64,000 nt of DNA, taken from Escherichia coli (GTDB lineage Bacteria > Pseudomonadota > Gammaproteobacteria > Enterobacterales > Enterobacteriaceae). Where the stretch lies: the NCBI RefSeq assembly GCF_044324785.1, contig NZ_CP172127.1, one strand, 5' to 3'. The translations under genes were made by a program, and so were the position numbers. Shown here in pieces: positions 11,118 through 48,222 of this stretch (position 1 is the first letter of the stretch; each line of letters begins with the position of its first letter). Below the pieces are notes generated by a model. That model was not told the DNA's origin and made no database searches. It saw only the letters and a program-made list of their open reading frames with translations.

Positions 11118-12053
11118 ATGTCGCAAAATCAAGAAATTAGTAAGAAAGAACAATACAACCTGAACAAATTACAAAAACGTCTGCGTCGTAACGTGGGCGA
11201 AGCCATTGCTGACTTCAATATGATTGAAGAAGGCGATCGCATCATGGTTTGCCTCTCCGGGGGTAAAGACAGCTATACCATGCTGGAGATTCTGCGCAAT
11301 TTGCAGCAAAGCGCGCCAATCAATTTTTCGCTGGTGGCTGTTAACCTCGATCAAAAGCAACCGGGCTTCCCGGAACACGTTCTGCCCGAGTATCTTGAAA
11401 AGCTGGGCGTTGAGTACAAGATTGTTGAAGAGAACACTTACGGTATCGTGAAAGAGAAAATTCCAGAGGGCAAAACCACTTGCTCACTGTGTTCTCGCCT
11501 GCGTCGCGGTATCCTTTATCGTACCGCAACGGAACTAGGGGCGACGAAGATCGCACTGGGTCACCATCGTGACGATATCCTGCAAACGCTGTTCTTAAAT
11601 ATGTTCTACGGTGGCAAGATGAAAGGTATGCCTCCGAAACTGATGAGCGATGATGGCAAACATATCGTGATTCGTCCGCTGGCCTACTGCCGCGAGAAAG
11701 ATATTCAGCGCTTTGCCGATGCAAAAGCGTTCCCGATTATTCCGTGCAACCTGTGCGGTTCACAGCCTAACCTGCAACGTCAGGTAATTGCTGACATGTT
11801 GCGTGACTGGGATAAACGTTATCCGGGGCGTATCGAGACGATGTTCAGCGCAATGCAGAATGTGGTGCCGTCGCATCTGTGCGATACCAACCTGTTCGAT
11901 TTCAAAGGCATTACCCACGGTTCTGAAGTGGTTAACGGGGGTGATCTGGCGTTTGATCGCGAAGAGATCCCACTACAACCGGCGGGCTGGCAGCCAGAAG
12001 AAGATGAAAATCAGTTGGATGAGTTACGACTGAATGTGGTTGAAGTGAAATAA
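11118..12053 (+). CDS. ttcA: tRNA 2-thiocytidine(32) synthetase TtcA, intact (311 aa)
   Basis: 311 aa; PP-loop ATP pyrophosphatase motif SGGKDS; CxxC pairs (CSLC, CNLC). Confidence 0.9.
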
Positions 12054-17087: not shown

Positions 17088-17281
17088 GTAACCTCCTATG
17101 CACCTTCACACGTCGTGATTCAGACGGGTTAATTGTTCATACTTACTGCATCGTTCCCTTCACAGATTGAAACAATACTCTACTTCATACCTGTGAGTAT
17201 CTGCGCAGGCGGGGCATTTTATACTAGCCTGTTAGCAGTATCGAACAGTTTAGCCCGAGTTTAATTCAGCACAGGCTCCGA

Positions 17282-18796
17282 TCAGGATGATTTATTCATA
17301 GCAGGAACCAACAAAAATGCGATAAATAACAGACCACTGATTAGCAGAAAGGTATCCGAAAATGCCATAGTTTGCGCCTCCCTCAGCATCAATTGACTTA
17401 ATAATTTGGTTGAAGCCAGTATTTCCGATGTCTGGTCACTTCCACTGCGATTAAAAAACAAAGCACTTCTGGAAATGAAGTCATTCACCGTATGGGGAAC
17501 AGAAACCATTTTTTCACCCATTCTCGAAAAATGAAAATTAGTTCGATTATTGAGAATAGAGCCACACAGGGCAATACCAATCGCGCCCCCAAGATTACGT
17601 GTTAAATTAAATACACCAGAGGCTAACTTCAGCCGTTCTTTTGGAATTCCCCCCAGCGTTAATGTTACGATGGGGGCCATCGCAAACTGCTGCGAAATCC
17701 CTCTAATTGCCTGTGGAAACAGTAACTCCTGCCATCCCCATTCGTGGGTTATCGGGGTAAAAAGATACATTGAAAACACAAATCCACCCAGCCCCGCCAT
17801 CAACAGCCATCGCAGATTTATTTTTTTACTTAACCAGAAGTAAAAGGGAACAGAAAATAACTGGAAAATACCTGTTGTGCAAACGGCAAAACCTATCTCT
17901 TCGGCATTTAATCCGCGAACCTGCCCCAAAAACACAGGTATTAAATATACAGTAGAGAATATCCCAACCCCTCCAGAAAAAGAAAAAAAACATCCCAGCG
18001 TGAAATTTTTATCCTTAAAAGCATGAAGATCCATTATCGGATTGGATATTGTAAGTGTACGCACAGCAAATAAAATAAAACTCACCAATGCCAGAACTGA
18101 TGTCAGCAAAATAGTATTATCATCCAGCCATCCCCAGCGCGCTCCTTCTTCAACGGTATATTCCAGACATCCCAGTGTCATGGCCAACAGGATAATACTC
18201 GGATAATCAGCAACTTTCAGTAAAGAGAGATCAGGTTTATCAAAATTAACCAGAAAAGGAATACTCAAAACTAAATATATGCCAGGTAATATATTGATAT
18301 AAAATAGCCATCGCCAGTCGAGATTATCAGTGATCCAGCCCCCCAGAGTTGGCCCTAGCGTCGGTGACAGTGAGGCCAGCGCACTGACTACCGCAGCAGC
18401 CAACCCCAGCTCTTTACCCTGGTAATAAATAAACGCCGTCGTGAAAACTAAAGGGATCATGGATGCGCCAGCCGCTCCCTGTAAAGCACGAAACAAAATC
18501 ATGATCTGAATATTCCATGCAAGTCCACACGCGATACTCATTAAAGTAAATATTCCCGCGGATAGAGTAAAAAGCCAACGAGTGGAAAATACCCGTGACA
18601 GCCACCCAGAGAGCGGAATAACAATAATCTCAGCAATTAAATAGCTGGTCTGAAGCCAGGCCATTTCGTCTTTACCTGCGGACAGACCACCACCTATTTC
18701 ATTTAGGGATGACGATACAATTTGAATATCAAGCTGAGCAATAAATAATCCCATACACATACTGGCGAAAGCAATATGTTTACGCATAGACATCAT
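17282..18796 (-). CDS. MFS transporter, EmrB/QacA-like multidrug-efflux type (504 aa)
   Basis: 504 aa, highly hydrophobic with many predicted TM segments; start overlaps upstream MFP stop by 4 nt (ATGA). Confidence 0.8.
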   Translation of the reverse strand: MMSMRKHIAFASMCMGLFIAQLDIQIVSSSLNEIGGGLSAGKDEMAWLQTSYLIAEIIVIPLSGWLSRVFSTRWLFTLSAGIFTLMSIACGLAWNIQIMILFRALQGAAGASMIPLVFTTAFIYYQGKELGLAAAVVSALASLSPTLGPTLGGWITDNLDWRWLFYINILPGIYLVLSIPFLVNFDKPDLSLLKVADYPSIILLAMTLGCLEYTVEEGARWGWLDDNTILLTSVLALVSFILFAVRTLTISNPIMDLHAFKDKNFTLGCFFSFSGGVGIFSTVYLIPVFLGQVRGLNAEEIGFAVCTTGIFQLFSVPFYFWLSKKINLRWLLMAGLGGFVFSMYLFTPITHEWGWQELLFPQAIRGISQQFAMAPIVTLTLGGIPKERLKLASGVFNLTRNLGGAIGIALCGSILNNRTNFHFSRMGEKMVSVPHTVNDFISRSALFFNRSGSDQTSEILASTKLLSQLMLREAQTMAFSDTFLLISGLLFIAFLLVPAMNKSS

Positions 18797-19824
18797 CTCT
18801 CATCAACACTGACGGTGACGGACAGTCCCGGGCGAAGAAGTTGCTTTAATTCCTTTGCGTCGTCAAATGCAATCCGTACCGGGACACGCTGAACAATTTT
18901 GGTGAAATTGCCAGTGGCATTTTCTATCGGAATCAAGCTGAAACTGGCTCCTGTCGCTGGGGAAAGGCTTTCAATGTGACCGTGAAACACTTCCCCTTTG
19001 AGAATATCAGCACGGATCTCAGCCTTCATTCCTGGCTTCATTCCCGCTATTTGGTTTTCTTTATAATTTGCATCAACCCACAACTCACTGACTGGTACTA
19101 GTGAAACTAACGATGTGCCGCCTTCCACCCAACTGCCTGTATGGGCGCTGCGGTTTGCGACAATGCCATCAATCGGCGCACGAACAAGGGTATATTCCAG
19201 ATCCAGTAGTGCCTGAGTCAAAGCGGCCTGAACTTCTTCGATACTTGCACGTACGTTTTCTTCCTGAGCAGATAAAACTGCCAGCCGTTGCTTCTCCACC
19301 ATGAAATCGTTCGCGGCTTTGCGCTCCTTTGCTGCGACCTGCTGGTAGTCAAACCTGGCGTTATCAATAATTTGTTGCGATATTGCCGCTGATTGTGCGA
19401 GTTTTTCATAACGTTCAGTATCTCGCAGGCGCTTTTGCTCCTCATGTTTTACTGCCTGCCATGTTTCACTGGCACTTTGAATTATCGACTGCTGCATCGC
19501 AATAGTGGCTTGAATGCTTTCGAGATTGGCTTTGCTACTTTTTATTTTTGCCTCAAGCCTGGCGACATTTGCACGATAATCCCGATCATCGAGACGCAGG
19601 ATAATATCGCCTTTTTTTACGCTCTGATTATCGCGCACCTCTATAGCAGAAATATAACCAGAAACTTTACTTGCCACCGTGGTGATATTACCACCAATGT
19701 AAGCATCATCCGTCGTCTGTATAAATCTTCCTTTGCTTACCCACCAGATAAAAAAGACAACGCCAGCCAAAATAATACCGATCGCTACCACCCCAATAAG
19801 CTGTTTTTTAGAAATTATCATCAC
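18793..19824 (-). CDS. HlyD/EmrA-family membrane fusion protein (343 aa)
   Basis: N-terminal TM anchor (VVAIGIILAGVVFFIWW), long coiled-coil region, C-terminal beta-barrel segment typical of MFPs. Confidence 0.8.
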   Translation of the reverse strand: MMIISKKQLIGVVAIGIILAGVVFFIWWVSKGRFIQTTDDAYIGGNITTVASKVSGYISAIEVRDNQSVKKGDIILRLDDRDYRANVARLEAKIKSSKANLESIQATIAMQQSIIQSASETWQAVKHEEQKRLRDTERYEKLAQSAAISQQIIDNARFDYQQVAAKERKAANDFMVEKQRLAVLSAQEENVRASIEEVQAALTQALLDLEYTLVRAPIDGIVANRSAHTGSWVEGGTSLVSLVPVSELWVDANYKENQIAGMKPGMKAEIRADILKGEVFHGHIESLSPATGASFSLIPIENATGNFTKIVQRVPVRIAFDDAKELKQLLRPGLSVTVSVDER

Positions 19825-19917
19825 TCTTTACACCGTATATATCCGGAAACTTGCATTCGTCATATTTAAAATTTAACATGGCTTATTTGATGATTTCTGA
19901 CAAAATACCTACTGTAA

Positions 19918-20733
19918 ATGACAATCACACTGCAACCCAAAGCATCACCAGGGCATCACATTATCGGACTGGATTCGGAACATCTGAATGGAGGCACAGT
20001 TCCCTGGCATAAACATCTCTATGCCCAGTTGCTTTACCCGGCTGAAGGAGTCGTTCGTGTATGGGCTGGAGAAAGCGTCTGGCTAGTCCATGCCAGCAGC
20101 GCGCTTTGGCTGCCCCCACAAATGCCGCATAAGTTTGTTGCGACAGGCAACGTACTTTTAAAAACCGTACTGGTTTCAGAAGCGGAAAGTGAAACGCTGG
20201 GAAAAGTTTGCTTCATGACGGGTATTTCACCCCTGTTAAGAGAATTACTAATTGCAATTAACCAACTTCCACCGTCGCAAAGTACCACAGATAAACAACA
20301 GTTACGTTTTTCAGCCCTCGAGACACTGATACTTCAGGAAATAAAAATGGGGGTGAAAATGTCACTTGAACTCCCTTGGCCAAATGATGAGCGGCTACAG
20401 CAGCTTTGTGAGAATTTGCTAAACAACCAAGGGTATCTACCAACACTGGATAATCTAGCGGATAAAATTAACGTCAGTAGCCGTACACTCATGCGCTTAT
20501 TTGTTAAAGAGACGGGATTAACATTTCGCCACTGGGTTCAGCAAATGCACGTTATTTCTGCAGTGACGCTTCTTGATGATGGATATTCGTTGACCAAAAT
20601 TGCCCATCGTCTGGGCTATGCCTCAGCTGAATCGTTCGGCAATATGTTTAAGCGTCGAACGGGCTACTCGCCCGGTAAATTTACTCGTCGATTAACGATG
20701 CATGATTATGCAATCACAAGACAAATGATTTAA
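19918..20733 (+). CDS. AraC/XylS-family transcriptional regulator with N-terminal cupin-like domain (271 aa)
   Basis: C-terminal double HTH (KIAHRLGYASAESFGNMFKRRTGYSPGKF); divergent from the MFP-MFS operon. Confidence 0.8.
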   Translation: MTITLQPKASPGHHIIGLDSEHLNGGTVPWHKHLYAQLLYPAEGVVRVWAGESVWLVHASSALWLPPQMPHKFVATGNVLLKTVLVSEAESETLGKVCFMTGISPLLRELLIAINQLPPSQSTTDKQQLRFSALETLILQEIKMGVKMSLELPWPNDERLQQLCENLLNNQGYLPTLDNLADKINVSSRTLMRLFVKETGLTFRHWVQQMHVISAVTLLDDGYSLTKIAHRLGYASAESFGNMFKRRTGYSPGKFTRRLTMHDYAITRQMI

Positions 20734-27932: not shown

Positions 27933-28883
27933 ATGGCTATGTATCAGAACATGCTCGTTGTTATCGATCCTAACCAGGACGACCAACCAGCATTGCGGCG
28001 AGCTGTTTATTTACATCAACGGATTGGTGGCAAAATTAAAGCCTTTTTGCCGATCTATGACTTCTCATACGAAATGACCACCCTGCTCTCTCCGGACGAA
28101 CGTACCGCTATGCGTCAGGGCGTCATCAGCCAGCGTACAGCCTGGATCCACGAGCAGGCAAAATATTATCTCAATGCTGGCGTTCCCATTGAAATTAAAG
28201 TGGTCTGGCATAACCGTCCTTTCGAAGCCATCATTCAGGAAGTGATCAGCGGCGGGCACGATTTGGTGCTAAAAATGGCGCACCAACATGACCGTCTGGA
28301 AGCGGTGATTTTTACGCCAACGGACTGGCATCTGTTACGCAAATGCCCAAGCCCGGTGTGGATGGTGAAAGACCAGCCGTGGCCGGAAGGGGGTAAGGCG
28401 CTGGTGGCGGTGAATCTCGCCAGTGAAGAGCCGTATCATAATGCGCTCAATGAAAAACTGGTCAAAGAGACGATCGAACTGGCGGAACAAGTCAACCATA
28501 CCGAAGTTCATCTGGTTGGCGCTTATCCGGTAACGCCAATTAATATCGCGATTGAACTGCCGGAATTTGATCCGAGCGTTTATAACGATGCCATTCGTGG
28601 GCAACATTTGCTGGCAATGAAAGCCCTGCGGCAGAAATTCGGCATTAATGAAAACATGACGCACGTAGAAAAAGGTCTGCCAGAAGAGGTGATTCCTGAT
28701 TTGGCGGAGCATTTACAGGCGGGGATTGTGGTTCTGGGCACGGTCGGACGCACCGGTATTTCAGCGGCATTCCTCGGCAACACGGCGGAACAGGTGATTG
28801 ATCATCTTCGCTGCGACCTGCTGGTCATTAAACCTGACCAGTATCAGACACCCGTTGAACTGGATGACGAAGAAGACGATTAA
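27933..28883 (+). CDS. uspE: tandem-domain universal stress protein UspE (316 aa)
   Basis: ORF track 27906..28883 trimmed to [10 protein letters not shown]; two Usp domains. Confidence 0.9.
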
Positions 28884-28903
28884 CGACTCTTCAATAACTG
28901 ACA

Positions 28904-28930
28904 AGGCCCGAGTTATCGGGCCTATTTTTT
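28904..28930. terminator. terminator hairpin between convergent uspE and ynaJ
   Basis: aggcccga gtta tcgggcct followed by attttttt. Confidence 0.65.
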
Positions 28931-28932
28931 AC

Positions 28933-29190
28933 TTACTGCTCTTCGCCGCCAAGGAAATAAATTCCCAACGGGATTGCCAGCAACACAGTAAAGACCAGGC
29001 TATAAACAAAAATCATCGATGACTGAATCACATACATTGATGTCGTCCACTCAGACAGCGGAATATTGTACTGTTCTATCACGCCGCCGATGGTCGCGCG
29101 AGTCACAACCGACGCCGCAATAATGAAAACCGCCAACAAACCAAAGAGAAATTTCTTCCCTTTCGCTGACTTCAGTTTCGCCATAATCAT
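28933..29190 (-). CDS. ynaJ: small membrane protein YnaJ (85 aa)
   Basis: 85 aa with two hydrophobic helices. Confidence 0.8.
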   Translation of the reverse strand: MIMAKLKSAKGKKFLFGLLAVFIIAASVVTRATIGGVIEQYNIPLSEWTTSMYVIQSSMIFVYSLVFTVLLAIPLGIYFLGGEEQ

Positions 29191-29433
29191 GATGTAATCC
29201 TTGTGCAGACAAATTTCTTGTTACCTAAACGTAACAATACCATGACATTTTACCGTTGTCTGCTCTGAAAACCTTACCTCTTAGCTGGATTTACAATCAA
29301 CGCATTGATTAGTTAGCTAATGTTGCTACTTCCTTCCCTGACTATTGATGATCTGAATGAATTGTCGCGGTAAAATAGCCCCGCCAGGGGTTTCCGGCAT
29401 GACGACAATTATCTGGAGGAGCCTGATAAAACA

Positions 29434-30465
29434 ATGATCGCTGAACTGTTTACAAATAATGCGCTTAATCTGGTCATTATTTTCGGTAGCTGCGCAGCAT
29501 TGATTCTGATGAGCTTTTGGTTTCGCCGCGGAAATCGTAAAAGAAAAGGTTTTTTATTCCATGCGGTGCAATTTTTAATCTACACCATAATTATCAGTGC
29601 TGTTGGTAGCATCATTAATTATGTTATAGAAAACTATAAACTCAAATTTATCACCCCAGGCGTTATCGATTTTATCTGTACGTCCCTGATTGCGGTTATT
29701 CTGACGATTAAGCTATTTCTGCTGATTAATCAGTTTGAAAAACAGCAGATTAAAAAAGGTCGCGATATCACCAGTGCGCGGATTATGTCGCGTATCATCA
29801 AAATCACCATTATTGTGGTGCTTGTTCTGCTTTATGGCGAACATTTCGGCATGAGCCTTTCTGGCTTGTTGACCTTTGGTGGTATTGGTGGTCTGGCTGT
29901 CGGTATGGCCGGTAAAGATATTCTGAGTAACTTCTTTTCCGGGATTATGCTCTATTTCGACCGTCCTTTTAGTATTGGCGACTGGATCCGTTCACCGGAC
30001 AGAAATATCGAAGGTACAGTAGCGGAAATTGGCTGGCGAATTACCAAAATTACGACCTTTGATAATCGTCCATTGTACGTACCGAACTCGCTGTTTTCGT
30101 CAATCAGCGTAGAAAACCCTGGACGAATGACCAACCGGCGCATTACCACGACCATTGGTTTACGTTATGAGGATGCGGCAAAAGTGGGCGCTATTGTCGA
30201 AGCCGTACGTGAGATGCTGAAAAATCACCCGGCCATCGACCAGCGACAAACCCTACTGGTTTATTTCAACCAGTTTGCTGACTCTTCATTGAATATTATG
30301 GTTTATTGCTTTACCAAAACCACGGTATGGGCTGAATGGCTTGCTGCACAGCAAGACGTTTATTTGAAGATTATCGATATTGTACAGTCACACGACGCGG
30401 ACTTTGCCTTCCCCAGCCAGACGCTGTATATGGATAACATTACACCGCCGGACCAGGGTCGCTAA
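29434..30465 (+). CDS. ynaI: MscS-family mechanosensitive channel YnaI (343 aa)
   Basis: 343 aa; N-terminal TM helices followed by MscS beta domain. Confidence 0.9.
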
Positions 30466-30682
30466 ATCAGACATCACTGGCGTTATCCACAAGGGTAACG
30501 CCAGTTCCCATTACATCAATGCTTCACAATATACATAGTCCGACTGTACGCCACATCTTCAGGGTTATTAATGGGATAACCTTTCAGCCACGGCTTGATT
30601 AATCGTCCATTGGTATATTGATAAATTGGTGCAATCGGTGCTTGCTCCATGAGGATTTTTTCTGCCGCATTGTAATCGGCAT

Positions 30683-30691
30683 TACGCGCTT
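30683..30691. repeat. IS1 target-site duplication, left copy (TACGCGCTT)
   Basis: identical 9-mer immediately flanks both IS1 ends. Confidence 0.9.
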
Positions 30692-30746
30692 GGTGATGCT
30701 GCCAACTTACTGATTTAGTGTATGATGGTGTTTTTGAGGTGCTCCA

Positions 30747-31022
30747 GTGGCTTCTGTTTCTATCAGCTGTCCCTCCTGTTCAGCTACTGACGGGGTGGTG
30801 CGTAACGGCAAAAGCACCGCCGGACATCAGCGCTATCTCTGCTCTCACTGCCGTAAAACATGGCAACTGCAGTTCACTTACACCGCTTCTCAACCCGGTA
30901 CGCACCAGAAAATCATTGATATGGCCATGAATGGCGTTGGATGCCGGGCAACTGCCCGCATTATGGGCGTTGGCCTCAACACGATTTTACGTCACTTAAA
31001 AAACTCAGGCCGCAGTCGGTAA
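30747..31022 (+). CDS. insA: IS1 InsA (91 aa)
   Basis: [43 protein letters not shown]... zinc-finger/HTH InsA. Confidence 0.95.
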
Positions 31023-31444
31023 CCTCGCGCATACAGCCGGGCAGTGACGTCATCGTCTGCGCGGAAATGGACGAACAGTGGGGCTATGTCGGGGCTAAAT
31101 CGCGCCAGCGCTGGCTGTTTTACGCGTATGACAGTCTCCGGAAGACGGTTGTTGCGCACGTATTCGGTGAACGCACTATGGCGACGCTGGGGCGTCTTAT
31201 GAGCCTGCTGTCACCCTTTGACGTGGTGATATGGATGACGGATGGCTGGCCGCTGTATGAATCCCGCCTGAAGGGAAAGCTGCACGTAATCAGCAAGCGA
31301 TATACGCAGCGAATTGAGCGGCATAACCTGAATCTGAGGCAGCACCTGGCACGGCTGGGACGGAAGTCGCTGTCGTTTTCAAAATCGGTGGAGCTGCATG
31401 ACAAAGTCATCGGGCATTATCTGAACATAAAACACTATCAATAA
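30941..31444 (+). CDS. insB: IS1 InsB reading frame (expressed as InsAB' by -1 frameshift)
   Basis: 167-aa ORF in the -1 frame overlapping the insA 3' end. Confidence 0.9.
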
Positions 31445-31459
31445 GTTGGAGTCATTACC

Positions 31460-31468
31460 TACGCGCTT
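31460..31468. repeat. IS1 target-site duplication, right copy (TACGCGCTT)
   Basis: identical to 30683-30691. Confidence 0.9.
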
Positions 31469-34267: not shown

Positions 34268-35200
34268 ATGAGGAACGGAATGATGAATAATAAAGTCAGC
34301 TTCACTAACAGCAATAATCCAACCATCTCTTTGTCTGCAGTGATCTATTTCCCTCCAAAATTTGATGAAACCCGTCAGTATCCGGCAATTGTGGTATCTC
34401 ACCCAGGTGGGGGCGTTAAAGAGCAAACGGCCGGAACCTATGCCGAAAAACTGGCGGAAAAGGGATTTGTCACTATTGCTTATGACGCATCTTATCAAGG
34501 TGAAAGCGGCGGCGAGCCGCGTCAGTTAGAAAACCCATACATTCGTACTGAAGACGTCAGTGCCGTGATTGATTACCTGACAACGCTTTCTTATGTCGAC
34601 AATACCCGAATTGGTGCGATGGGAATTTGTGCCGGTGCAGGATATACAGCCAATGCTGCAATTCAGGATCGCCGCATCAAGGCCATCGGTACTGTTAGTG
34701 CGGTCAATATTGGTTCGATGTTCCGTAATGGTTGGGAAAACAATGTGAAATCTATTGATGCCCTACCATACGTTGACGCGGGTTCAAACGCCCGAACCAG
34801 CGATATTAGCAGCGGAGAATACGCCACTATGCCACTGGCACCAATGAAGGAGTCCGATGCGCCGAACGAAGAACTGCGTCAGGCCTGGGAGTATTACCAC
34901 ACCCCTCGCGCGCAGTATCCAACAGCACCGGGTTACGCTACTTTGCGCAGCCTTAACCAGATTATTACCTATGATGCTTACCATATGGCGGAAGTGTACC
35001 TGACTCAGCCGATACAGATTGTGGCGGGCAGCCAGGCAGGGAGCAAATGGATGAGTGACGACCTGTACGATCGAGCATCAAGCCAGGATAAACGCTATCA
35101 CATTGTTGAAGGCGCAAACCATATGGATCTTTATGACGGCAAAGCCTATGTGGCTGAAGCAATTTCAGTATTAGCTCCGTTCTTTGAGGAAACTCTGTAA
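34268..35200 (+). CDS. ycjY: alpha/beta hydrolase, dienelactone-hydrolase-like with Cys nucleophile, YcjY (310 aa)
   Basis: GxCxG nucleophile elbow (MGICAGAG) in an alpha/beta-hydrolase-like sequence; start may be a few codons downstream. Confidence 0.8.
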   Translation: MRNGMMNNKVSFTNSNNPTISLSAVIYFPPKFDETRQYPAIVVSHPGGGVKEQTAGTYAEKLAEKGFVTIAYDASYQGESGGEPRQLENPYIRTEDVSAVIDYLTTLSYVDNTRIGAMGICAGAGYTANAAIQDRRIKAIGTVSAVNIGSMFRNGWENNVKSIDALPYVDAGSNARTSDISSGEYATMPLAPMKESDAPNEELRQAWEYYHTPRAQYPTAPGYATLRSLNQIITYDAYHMAEVYLTQPIQIVAGSQAGSKWMSDDLYDRASSQDKRYHIVEGANHMDLYDGKAYVAEAISVLAPFFEETL

Positions 35201-36132
35201 TGAAACATATTCAAATCCGCAATAGTGATATGGCCTGGCATATTGCTGCCAATATTCAGTTTCCACCAAATTTTGATGAGTCAAAACAGTATCCGGCGAT
35301 TATCAGCGTCCATCCTTTTGGCAGTTGTAAGGAGCAGACGTCTGGCAATATCTATGGCAAGGCATTGGCTGAAAAAGGCTATGTCGTTCTCGCTTATGAC
35401 GCCAGTTTCCAGGGAGAATCTGGTGGGGAGCCTCGTTGGATAGAAGATCCGACACAGCGCGTTGAGGATATTAGCCGTGTTATCGATTATGCAGTAACTC
35501 TGCCATATGTTGATGCTGAACGCATTGGCGTGCTGGGTGTGTGTGGGGGGGGTGGCTATGCCATTAATGCCGCGCTGACAGAAAAACGAATTAAAGCTGT
35601 AGTGAGTATTACGGGTGTTAATATCGGGCGTCTTTTTCGAGAAGGTTTCAGCAATTACGATCCGATTGGCGCATTGAATGCAATGGCGTCGCAACGAACC
35701 AAAGAGGCTCGTGGTGGAGAATTACAGATCAACGAATTACTTCCCGCCAGCCTGGATGCAGCAAAAGCCCATGGACTGACCGAACGCGATGTTTATGAAG
35801 CAACTGACTACTATAAAACACCACGCGGGCAACAACCGGGAGGTGCGACAAAAATGTTGTTCTCACATGCACAGAAAACGCTGGCCTGGGATGCCTTCGC
35901 ATTTACTGAAGTGTTACTGACTCAGCCGGTGATGGTAGTAGTTGGTGAAAAAGTCGGTGCCTTCGGTGCTTATCGTGATGGACTGGAAGTCTATGGCCGG
36001 GCGATGGTTTCGCAGGATCGTCAGTTAGTTTCGTTACCCGATTTCTCACATTATGAACTGTATGACAAACCGGAAGCAGTTCAGGAGGCGCTGGAAAAAG
36101 TTATTCCTTTTTTCAACACCCATCTGGGATAA
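35200..36132 (+). CDS. paralogous alpha/beta hydrolase with Cys nucleophile (310 aa); corresponds in position to a region I recall as the K-12 ymjD remnant
   Basis: Clear paralog of the upstream gene (shared blocks AYDASFQGESGGEPR, LGVCGGGG); start overlaps ycjY stop. Confidence 0.75.
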   Translation: MKHIQIRNSDMAWHIAANIQFPPNFDESKQYPAIISVHPFGSCKEQTSGNIYGKALAEKGYVVLAYDASFQGESGGEPRWIEDPTQRVEDISRVIDYAVTLPYVDAERIGVLGVCGGGGYAINAALTEKRIKAVVSITGVNIGRLFREGFSNYDPIGALNAMASQRTKEARGGELQINELLPASLDAAKAHGLTERDVYEATDYYKTPRGQQPGGATKMLFSHAQKTLAWDAFAFTEVLLTQPVMVVVGEKVGAFGAYRDGLEVYGRAMVSQDRQLVSLPDFSHYELYDKPEAVQEALEKVIPFFNTHLG

Positions 36133-36137
36133 GTTTC

Positions 36138-36788
36138 ATGAGAAATATTATGAAAAAAGTACTCATTCTTGGTGCTGGCGGTCAGATAGCCCGCCATGTG
36201 ATTAATCAACTGGCAGATAAACAAACCATTAAACAAACTTTATTTGCTCGTCAGCCAGCAAAAATACACAAACCCTATCCAACTAATAGCCAGATTATTA
36301 TGGGGGATGTACTGAATCATGCAGCACTGAAGCAGGCCATGCAGGGACAGGATGTTGTGTATGCCAACCTTACGGGGGAAGATTTAGATATTCAGGCAAA
36401 TTCAGTGATCGCTGCGATGAAAGCCTGTGATGTTAAACGTCTGATCTTTGTTCTTTCCCTCGGTATTTATGATGAAGTTCCAGGAAAATTTGGCGAATGG
36501 AATAATGCAGTTATTGGTGAACCCCTAAAACCATTCCGCAGGGCTGCGGATGCAATTGAGGCTTCTGGACTGGAATATACAATTCTTCGCCCTGCCTGGC
36601 TGACTGATGAAGATATTATTGATTATGAGCTTACCTCACGCAATGAACCATTCAAAGGTACGATCGTATCACGTAAGAGTGTCGCCGCATTAATTACAGA
36701 TATCATCGATAAACCTGAGAAACACATTGGTGAGAATATAGGCATCAATCAACCCGGGACTGATGGCGATAAACCCTTCTTCATGTAA
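36138..36788 (+). CDS. NAD(P)H-binding NmrA/SDR-like protein (216 aa); corresponds in position to a region I recall as the K-12 ymjC remnant
   Basis: Rossmann motif VLILGAGGQIARH near the N-terminus; true start may be MKKVLILG at 36150. Confidence 0.7.
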   Translation: MRNIMKKVLILGAGGQIARHVINQLADKQTIKQTLFARQPAKIHKPYPTNSQIIMGDVLNHAALKQAMQGQDVVYANLTGEDLDIQANSVIAAMKACDVKRLIFVLSLGIYDEVPGKFGEWNNAVIGEPLKPFRRAADAIEASGLEYTILRPAWLTDEDIIDYELTSRNEPFKGTIVSRKSVAALITDIIDKPEKHIGENIGINQPGTDGDKPFFM

Positions 36789-36953
36789 ATCAATTATATA
36801 GCTACCATCGTACTGTACTATGTGCAGTACGATTTATTAAACTTATTAAGGTGAACTGATCAATCAGATGCGATTAACATGTGTAGAACCAGTAAGAATA
36901 AAATACGCCATGTATATAACATTACGACAATTCTAATATCTGCACATCAATGA

Positions 36954-43560: not shown

Positions 43561-43678
43561 TGCTGTCCTGTGCCAGAAAGCTGTAGAAAGGATTAGATAC
43601 TGGAGATAATAATGTGGGTTAATTTTGATTTATCAAATGAATAAGCGGCGTTGTTTACACCGCTCAATAAGTAATTTG

Positions 43679-46782: not shown

Positions 46783-46786
46783 GAAT
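46783..46786. repeat. 4-bp direct repeat (GAAT) flanking the left end of the IS3-family element; lies within the left half of a split REP palindrome
   Basis: left flank ...gccggatgcggcgtGAAT | TGAACTGCACCCC... Confidence 0.6.
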
Positions 46787-47310
46787 TGAACTGCACCCCA
46801 AATGTTGGACATAATCTGACATCTGAAGGTGCAGTTTATGAAACATTCATTTGAAGTAAAACTTGCCGCTGTAAATCATTACCTGGCTGGTCATGCAGGC
46901 ATCATTTCTACGGCAAAACTCTTTCAACTTTCTCACACCAGCCTCTCACACTGGATTAATCTTTTTCTTCTTCACGGTCCTCGGGCACTGGATTGCAGAC
47001 ACAAGCGTAGCTATTCTCCTGAAGATAAACTTTGCGTGGTTCTTTATGCTCTCGGGCATTCTGAGTCTCTACCCCGGGTAGCTGCCCGGTTTAACATTCC
47101 CAGCCACAACACGGTTAAAAACTGGATAAAAGGCTACCGCAAATCTGGTAATGAGGCCTTTATCAGGCGCAGGAAGGAGAAAAGCATGACCCGTTCTGAT
47201 GATACCCATGAAAACGAGGCAAACATGACGCCGGAAGAGATGAAGAATGAGCTGCGTTATCTTCGCGCAGAAAATGCATATCTGAAAGCCATGCAGGAGC
47301 ATCTCCTGGA

Positions 47311-48218
<908 letters not shown>

Positions 48219-48222
48219 GAAT
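48219..48222. repeat. 4-bp direct repeat (GAAT) flanking the right end of the IS3-family element; start of the right half of the split REP
   Basis: ...CAGTTCA | GAATgctttatccggc. Confidence 0.6.

Follow-up and report, generated by a model that had tools for sequence, protein, structure and literature searches.

The 243-bp spacer between the divergent genes ynaJ and ynaI in the 64-kb stretch of DNA analysed here (hereafter the window) is almost certainly a native divergent promoter region that was never interrupted, that is, the ancestral allele of the locus, with IS5F having entered its TTAG target in the K-12 lineage alone. Under the mechanism we propose, one copy of IS5F (insH4/b1331) would have transposed into TTAG in that lineage, and the transposition would have duplicated 4 bp and moved ynaJ and ynaI 1.2 kb further apart. 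The K-12 IS5 at ynaI/ynaJ already has an annotation (b1331) and has been the subject of earlier studies. At this locus the exception is the reference strain: MG1655 coordinates and promoter models carry a 1.2-kb insertion that is missing from 93% of E. coli.

The gene set of the window around the spacer (fnr, uspE, ynaJ, ynaI and mppA) lies in the order of MG1655, reversed, and the features discussed below are collected in Table 1. The start codons of ynaJ (position 29190, minus strand) and ynaI (position 29434, plus strand), taken from the list of open reading frames and from the sequence, leave a gap of exactly 243 bp. As a guide to recognizing an IS5 in this gap we used a length of ~1195 bp, 16-bp terminal inverted repeats (GGAAGGTGCGAAYAAG) and an ins5A/insH transposase gene, all of which the K-12 comparator possesses. 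The spacer contains no transposase and no open reading frame above 31 amino acids, the longest frames that touch it being of 21–31 amino acids and of the kind expected by chance, and the K-12 copy of IS5 gave no BLAST match anywhere in the 64-kb window. A search of positions 28000-31000 against Rfam at E ≤ 1 likewise returned zero matches, and hence no known small RNA or riboswitch. The reading frames, the sequence and the BLAST search thus agree with the earlier note, which had described ynaJ and ynaI as separated by 243 bp with no transposase.

Table 1. Features of the ynaJ/ynaI locus and insertion sequences of the window (window coordinates)
Feature	Coordinates	Strand	Description
ynaJ	28933..29190	-	Open reading frame; 85 aa, DUF2534 inner-membrane protein; protein identical to YNAJ_ECOLI; RefSeq annotation of matching genomes concurs
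Divergent ynaJ/ynaI intergenic spacer, without IS	29191..29433	.	243 bp; colinear with 5055/5426 complete E. coli genomes
Predicted ynaJ promoter	29234..29262	-	-35 CAGACA (29262..29257), 17-bp spacer, extended -10 TGgTATTGT (29242..29234); read from the sequence
Unoccupied IS5 target TTAG	29313..29316	.	Present on each side of IS5F in K-12; lies in native run TTAGTTAG and palindrome TTAGCTAA
Predicted ynaI promoter region	29343..29376	+	Conserved block TATTGATGATCTGAA (29343-29357) and -10-like TAAAAT (29371-29376); putative
ynaI	29434..30465	+	Open reading frame; 343 aa, MscS-family low-conductance mechanosensitive channel; exact protein in public E. coli records; RefSeq annotation
IS1 in mppA	30692..31459	+	768 bp; 9-bp target duplication TACGCGCTT at 30683-30691 and 31460-31468
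IS1397 (IS3 family)	46787..48218	+	1432 bp; in REP between pspF and puuE; 4-bp duplication GAAT

The earlier note had also placed an IS5 (insH) between ynaI and ynaJ of K-12, had proposed alignment to the MG1655 interval as the way to check this, and had named an MG1655 without an IS at the site as the outcome that would overturn it. The K-12 IS5 proved to be real. The RefSeq annotation of MG1655 (NC_000913.3) records 'insertion sequence:IS5F' with insH4 (b1331) at 1396044-1397238, between ynaI (b1330) and ynaJ (b1332), and the alignment found the IS5 in place. When a K-12 genome was aligned to the window, it followed the window sequence up to 29316, continued with a 1195-bp IS5, and then resumed the window sequence at 29313. 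K-12 is therefore longer by 1199 bp, made up of the 1195 bp of the element and the 4 bp of the duplicated TTAG, and its spacer measures 1442 bp as compared with 243 bp in the window. The K-12 element, whose ends read GGAAGGTGCGAATAAG... and ...CTTGTTCGCACCTTCC, has terminal repeats GGAAGGTGCGAA... and is bordered by TTAG on either side, so that the K-12 junction reads ...gattagTTAG-IS5-TTAGctaatg.... In the pairwise alignment the two K-12 halves share only TTAG as overlap, and the window has one TTAG where K-12 has two around IS5, with flanks that are otherwise colinear; across ynaJ..ynaI as a whole, K-12 and the window differ by 16 SNPs. Matches from our genome survey (below) split the query at positions 614-617, in agreement with the TTAG point. 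IS5 prefers YTAR targets, and TTAG fits this pattern. The IS5 targets CTAA and CTAG are mentioned in PMC11677980. In comparison with IS5F of MG1655, the window thus shares the locus, the flanks to the base and TTAG, and differs in having no element and a single TTAG.

The distribution of the two states was determined in 5426 complete RefSeq E. coli genomes, in 5422 of which the region was matched. The spacer is uninterrupted in 5055 of the 5426 genomes (~93%), and queries that spanned an IS5 junction (flank plus IS5 end) were fully matched in 342 genomes on the ynaJ side and in 353 on the ynaI side. From these 342-353 IS5-bearing genomes 64 were listed by name, and all 64 appear to be K-12 laboratory derivatives; they include MG1655 and evolved lines, C600, J53, DH5alpha, DH1, MC1061, NCM3722, RR1 and ER strains. 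Beyond the 64 listed, a rare IS5 carrier outside K-12 may exist among the 342-353 genomes. In a further ~14-18 genomes the spacer is interrupted or missing for reasons other than IS5.

An exact 20-mer scan of species-representative genomes gave one match only, in Escherichia sp. MOD1-EC7003, a genome outside E. coli in which the site is likewise empty (96.7% identity); the other outgroups were taken via YnaJ orthologues. Divergent ynaI and ynaJ genes with IS-free spacers were found in E. albertii (242 bp), E. fergusonii (~241 bp), S. enterica (238 bp) and C. amalonaticus (243 bp); in Enterobacter roggenkampii ynaJ lies in a different genomic context. The gene neighbourhood of E. fergusonii ATCC 35469 (locus L010, 4066-5348) is distinguished by beta-lactamase-family and resolvase genes beside uspE, where other species have fnr, and these may represent a mobile-element insertion or a local rearrangement.

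The site is empty in the outgroups and in most E. coli lineages, including the 93% of genomes counted above, and empty is therefore the ancestral state; a single gain of IS5 in the K-12 lineage explains the whole distribution. Precise excision, in which the source lineage formerly had an IS5 here and lost it leaving a single TTAG, would give exactly the sequence that we observe, and TTAG is a good YTAR target within the TTAGTTAG / TTAGCTAA run. We nevertheless regard this history as highly improbable: all outgroups and the great majority of E. coli are empty, occupied alleles are seen only in K-12 derivatives, and a single K-12 gain is a much simpler history than an ancestral gain followed by many precise losses. 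Moreover, TTAG bears no excision footprint, and the site is likewise unoccupied in two relatives whose flanks match the window at 100% identity. The tandem TTAGTTAG was considered as an IS5 excision footprint and rejected, as the left flank of K-12 itself already holds the run, which is therefore native.

Because IS repeats are often mis-assembled from short reads, the empty site might in principle be an assembly artefact, with a real IS5 copy collapsed out of the assembled sequence. The probability of this is close to negligible given that IS1 and IS1397, which are multicopy, were assembled in place in the same window with intact target duplications, that the spacer recurs at 100% identity in two independent assemblies, and that the length of the spacer agrees with that in other species. 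A native spacer that was never occupied remains the reading we adopt in what follows.

In order to describe the anatomy of the spacer, we aligned six spacers and derived a conservation profile from the pairwise identity of the four most distant. The strongest peak of conservation (0.86) covers 29231-29245 and extends across Escherichia, Salmonella and Citrobacter; it coincides with the predicted extended -10 of ynaJ, and the CAGACA 17 bp further upstream is conserved as well. A second peak (0.73), at 29343-29357, precedes a GTAAAAT that is likewise conserved (29370-29376, ynaI strand). The two peaks are separated by a trough at 29263-29317, where conservation falls to 0.28-0.40, and the IS5 target sits at its right edge. 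A strict consensus promoter scan gave no strong sigma-70 match in the spacer; weaker candidate promoter elements coincide with the two conservation peaks. On grounds of sequence and conservation the spacer thus appears to comprise core promoters for the two genes, facing away from each other, around a weakly constrained centre. The same plan is seen in divergent enterobacterial promoter regions, which have in common with the window genes ~240 bp apart, a conserved -10/-35-type block beside each of them and a centre of low conservation, the assignment in the window being predictive. No mapped transcription starts for ynaJ or ynaI were found in the literature searched.

Two minor features of the spacer can be noted here. 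On the minus strand a terminator-like hairpin (29399-29382) falls within the 5' leader of ynaI; it lacks conservation beyond Escherichia and was treated as a chance match. Positions 29251 and 29275 of the window are T where K-12, E. coli 2018-18.25PC and Escherichia sp. MOD1-EC7003 have C; position 29251, which is C in all three comparators, falls within the spacer of the predicted ynaJ promoter, and position 29275 is T also in E. albertii. Both T states are common to SRR27151381 and GCA_044688645.1, which are 100% identical to the window across the region.

With this anatomy, IS5 would have landed in the centre of the spacer in K-12, with both core promoters still attached to their genes. The predicted ynaI promoter region is retained in K-12 because IS5 lies upstream of it, at 29316. 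The insertion would be tolerated in K-12 because its target falls in the middle of the spacer, where constraint is weak. We infer that expression is nearly unaffected by IS5F. A perfect palindrome, AATCAAcgcaTTGATT (29295-29310), adjoins the IS5 target, and IS5 is not considered in the studies of ynaI expression in K-12; both points would suit a spacer that hides some other functional element (a small RNA, a small protein or a shared operator) disrupted by the K-12 IS5. We consider such an element quite unlikely, as there is no Rfam match and the reading frames of the spacer are of chance size only, and as conservation in E. fergusonii, Salmonella and Citrobacter extends to the flanking promoter blocks but not to the palindrome or the rest of the centre. 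The specific candidate of AATCAAcgcaTTGATT as a shared operator severed by IS5 in K-12 was accordingly demoted: it is not conserved beyond E. coli and, in part, E. albertii, and such poor conservation makes a conserved operator unlikely.

Two core promoters around a weakly constrained centre thus remain the preferred description of the spacer, and a related question is whether expression data from K-12 represent natural E. coli. In K-12 data, ynaI is the weakest mechanosensitive channel gene, and Reg-Seq found no regulator sites. In that strain the predicted starts of ynaI and ynaJ lie ~67 bp and ~86 bp, respectively, from the ends of IS5F, which is upstream of both. Were upstream sequence of the intact spacer to regulate these genes, our knowledge of ynaI and ynaJ expression, which comes essentially from K-12, would reflect an IS-altered promoter and misrepresent natural E. 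coli. We think this unlikely; the spacer of natural E. coli is the one present in the window.

The IS5F copy has known consequences in K-12. It is one of 11 IS5 copies in BW25113, where the ynaI/ynaJ copy (copy 4) was deleted (PMC11677980). Certain stocks of W3110 and MG1655 have lost ynaJ-uspE-fnr through recombination between a further IS5, close to ogt/fnr, and what PMC2072959 calls 'the known IS5 element b1331 to the right of ynaI'. As the 64-kb window has no IS5, this route to deletion of ynaJ-uspE-fnr is absent from the interval. Other K-12 IS5 polymorphisms, such as those in wbbL/rfb-50 and, in some stocks, upstream of fnr, likewise separate K-12 lines or sublines from natural isolates by a single copy; compared with those markers, the state of the window is the common ancestral one and discriminates against K-12 only. 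In the K-12-like strain CY34 (locus L014, NZ_CM181225.1, 2852-5122) the IS5 beside ynaI abuts a truncated ttcA and not ynaJ, a state that is an IS5-associated rearrangement or deletion removing or relocating ynaJ-uspE-fnr. The ynaI-side junction was matched in 11 more genomes of the survey than the ynaJ-side junction (353 vs 342).

Over the interval that corresponds to MG1655 1351828-1445985 (reversed), the only insertion sequences of the window are IS1 and IS1397, and those of K-12 are IS5F and IS5Y. These differing sets bear out the view, expressed in the earlier note, that insertion sequences in this region are distributed in a lineage-specific manner. Its further suggestion that they can serve as a strain marker held in part: the insertion in mppA is of use for typing the strain, but an unoccupied IS5 target does no more than rule out K-12. 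Because an IS-free spacer is both ancestral and widespread, lack of IS5 says little beyond "not K-12", and the derived, marker-worthy state at ynaJ/ynaI is the insertion of K-12.

An IS1 was recognized by a length of 768 bp, imperfect terminal repeats of ~23 bp, insA and insB' frames and a target duplication of 8-9 bp. The element in mppA shows each of these, with inverted repeats GGTGATGCTGCCAACTTACTGAT and GGTAATGACTCCAACTTATTGAT, an InsA-like frame of 91 amino acids and an InsB-like frame of 167 amino acids, and its identity to annotated IS1A copies is 98.9%; the terminal repeats and the 9-bp duplication substantiate the IS1 that had been reported in mppA from the sequence. The insertion splits mppA, the gene of the murein tripeptide binding protein, at a point ~176 bp short of the 3' end. 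The mppA::IS1 junction was found in none of the 5426 complete E. coli genomes. Two weaker mppA-IS1 matches came from the complete genomes of 2018-18.25PC and UMNF18. In 2018-18.25PC the IS1 lies between mppA and pgrR, at a different site, and we therefore rejected it as the same insertion; the match in UMNF18 has the same geometry, in three pieces over ~2.7 kb. Over 10 kb, the closest of the complete E. coli genomes reaches 99.5% identity to the window. By comparison, GCA_044688645.1 and SRR27151381, which are draft or read-derived, are 100% identical to the window over ~6.8 kb and have no IS1 and one copy of the 9-bp target. That relatives with identical flanks lack the element indicates that the insertion is recent and strain-specific, and mppA::IS1 is a recent strain-specific gene inactivation.

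The IS3-family element that had been placed near pspF is indeed there and is IS1397. Here the expected characters were a length of ~1432 bp, terminal inverted repeats, two consecutive transposase frames, a duplication of 3-4 bp and a location in the loop of a REP (palindromic unit). Consistent with these, the terminal repeats of the element agree at 21 of 25 bases, two open reading frames lie on its plus strand, and the GAAT duplication falls inside the REP gccggatgcggcgtGAAT|GAATgctttatccggc. Work by Bachellier and Clement is said to have shown that IS1397 targets REP loops, and with its duplications the element in the window spans 46783-48222, in such a loop. The element together with both flanks was matched at a coverage of at least 80% in 94 complete genomes, and RefSeq annotates an 'IS3-like element IS1397 family transposase'.

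Several other differences between the window and K-12 were observed nearby. The Rac prophage, which occupies 23 kb in K-12 beside ttcA, is absent, and the K-12 flanks meet at 11125-11167 with a 43-bp overlap that is presumably the core of the attachment site. A 3.6-kb segment at 17098-20697, between smrA and the mcaS/abgR side, is missing from K-12; judged by eye from the translations, its open reading frames specify an EmrB-like MFS transporter (504 amino acids), an EmrA/HlyD-like protein (343 amino acids) and an AraC-family regulator (271 amino acids). At 35200-36948 the window has a second ycjY-like hydrolase (310 amino acids) and an NAD(P)-binding-like protein of 216 amino acids (also by eye), for which K-12 retains only the small remnants ymjD and ymjC, so that K-12 appears to carry a deletion there. 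Conversely, the ycjM-ycjW/ompG sugar-utilisation cluster (~14 kb, MG1655 1370022-1384104) is missing from the window, and at 43574-43659 an unrelated AT-rich sequence of 86 bp links pspE to ycjX.
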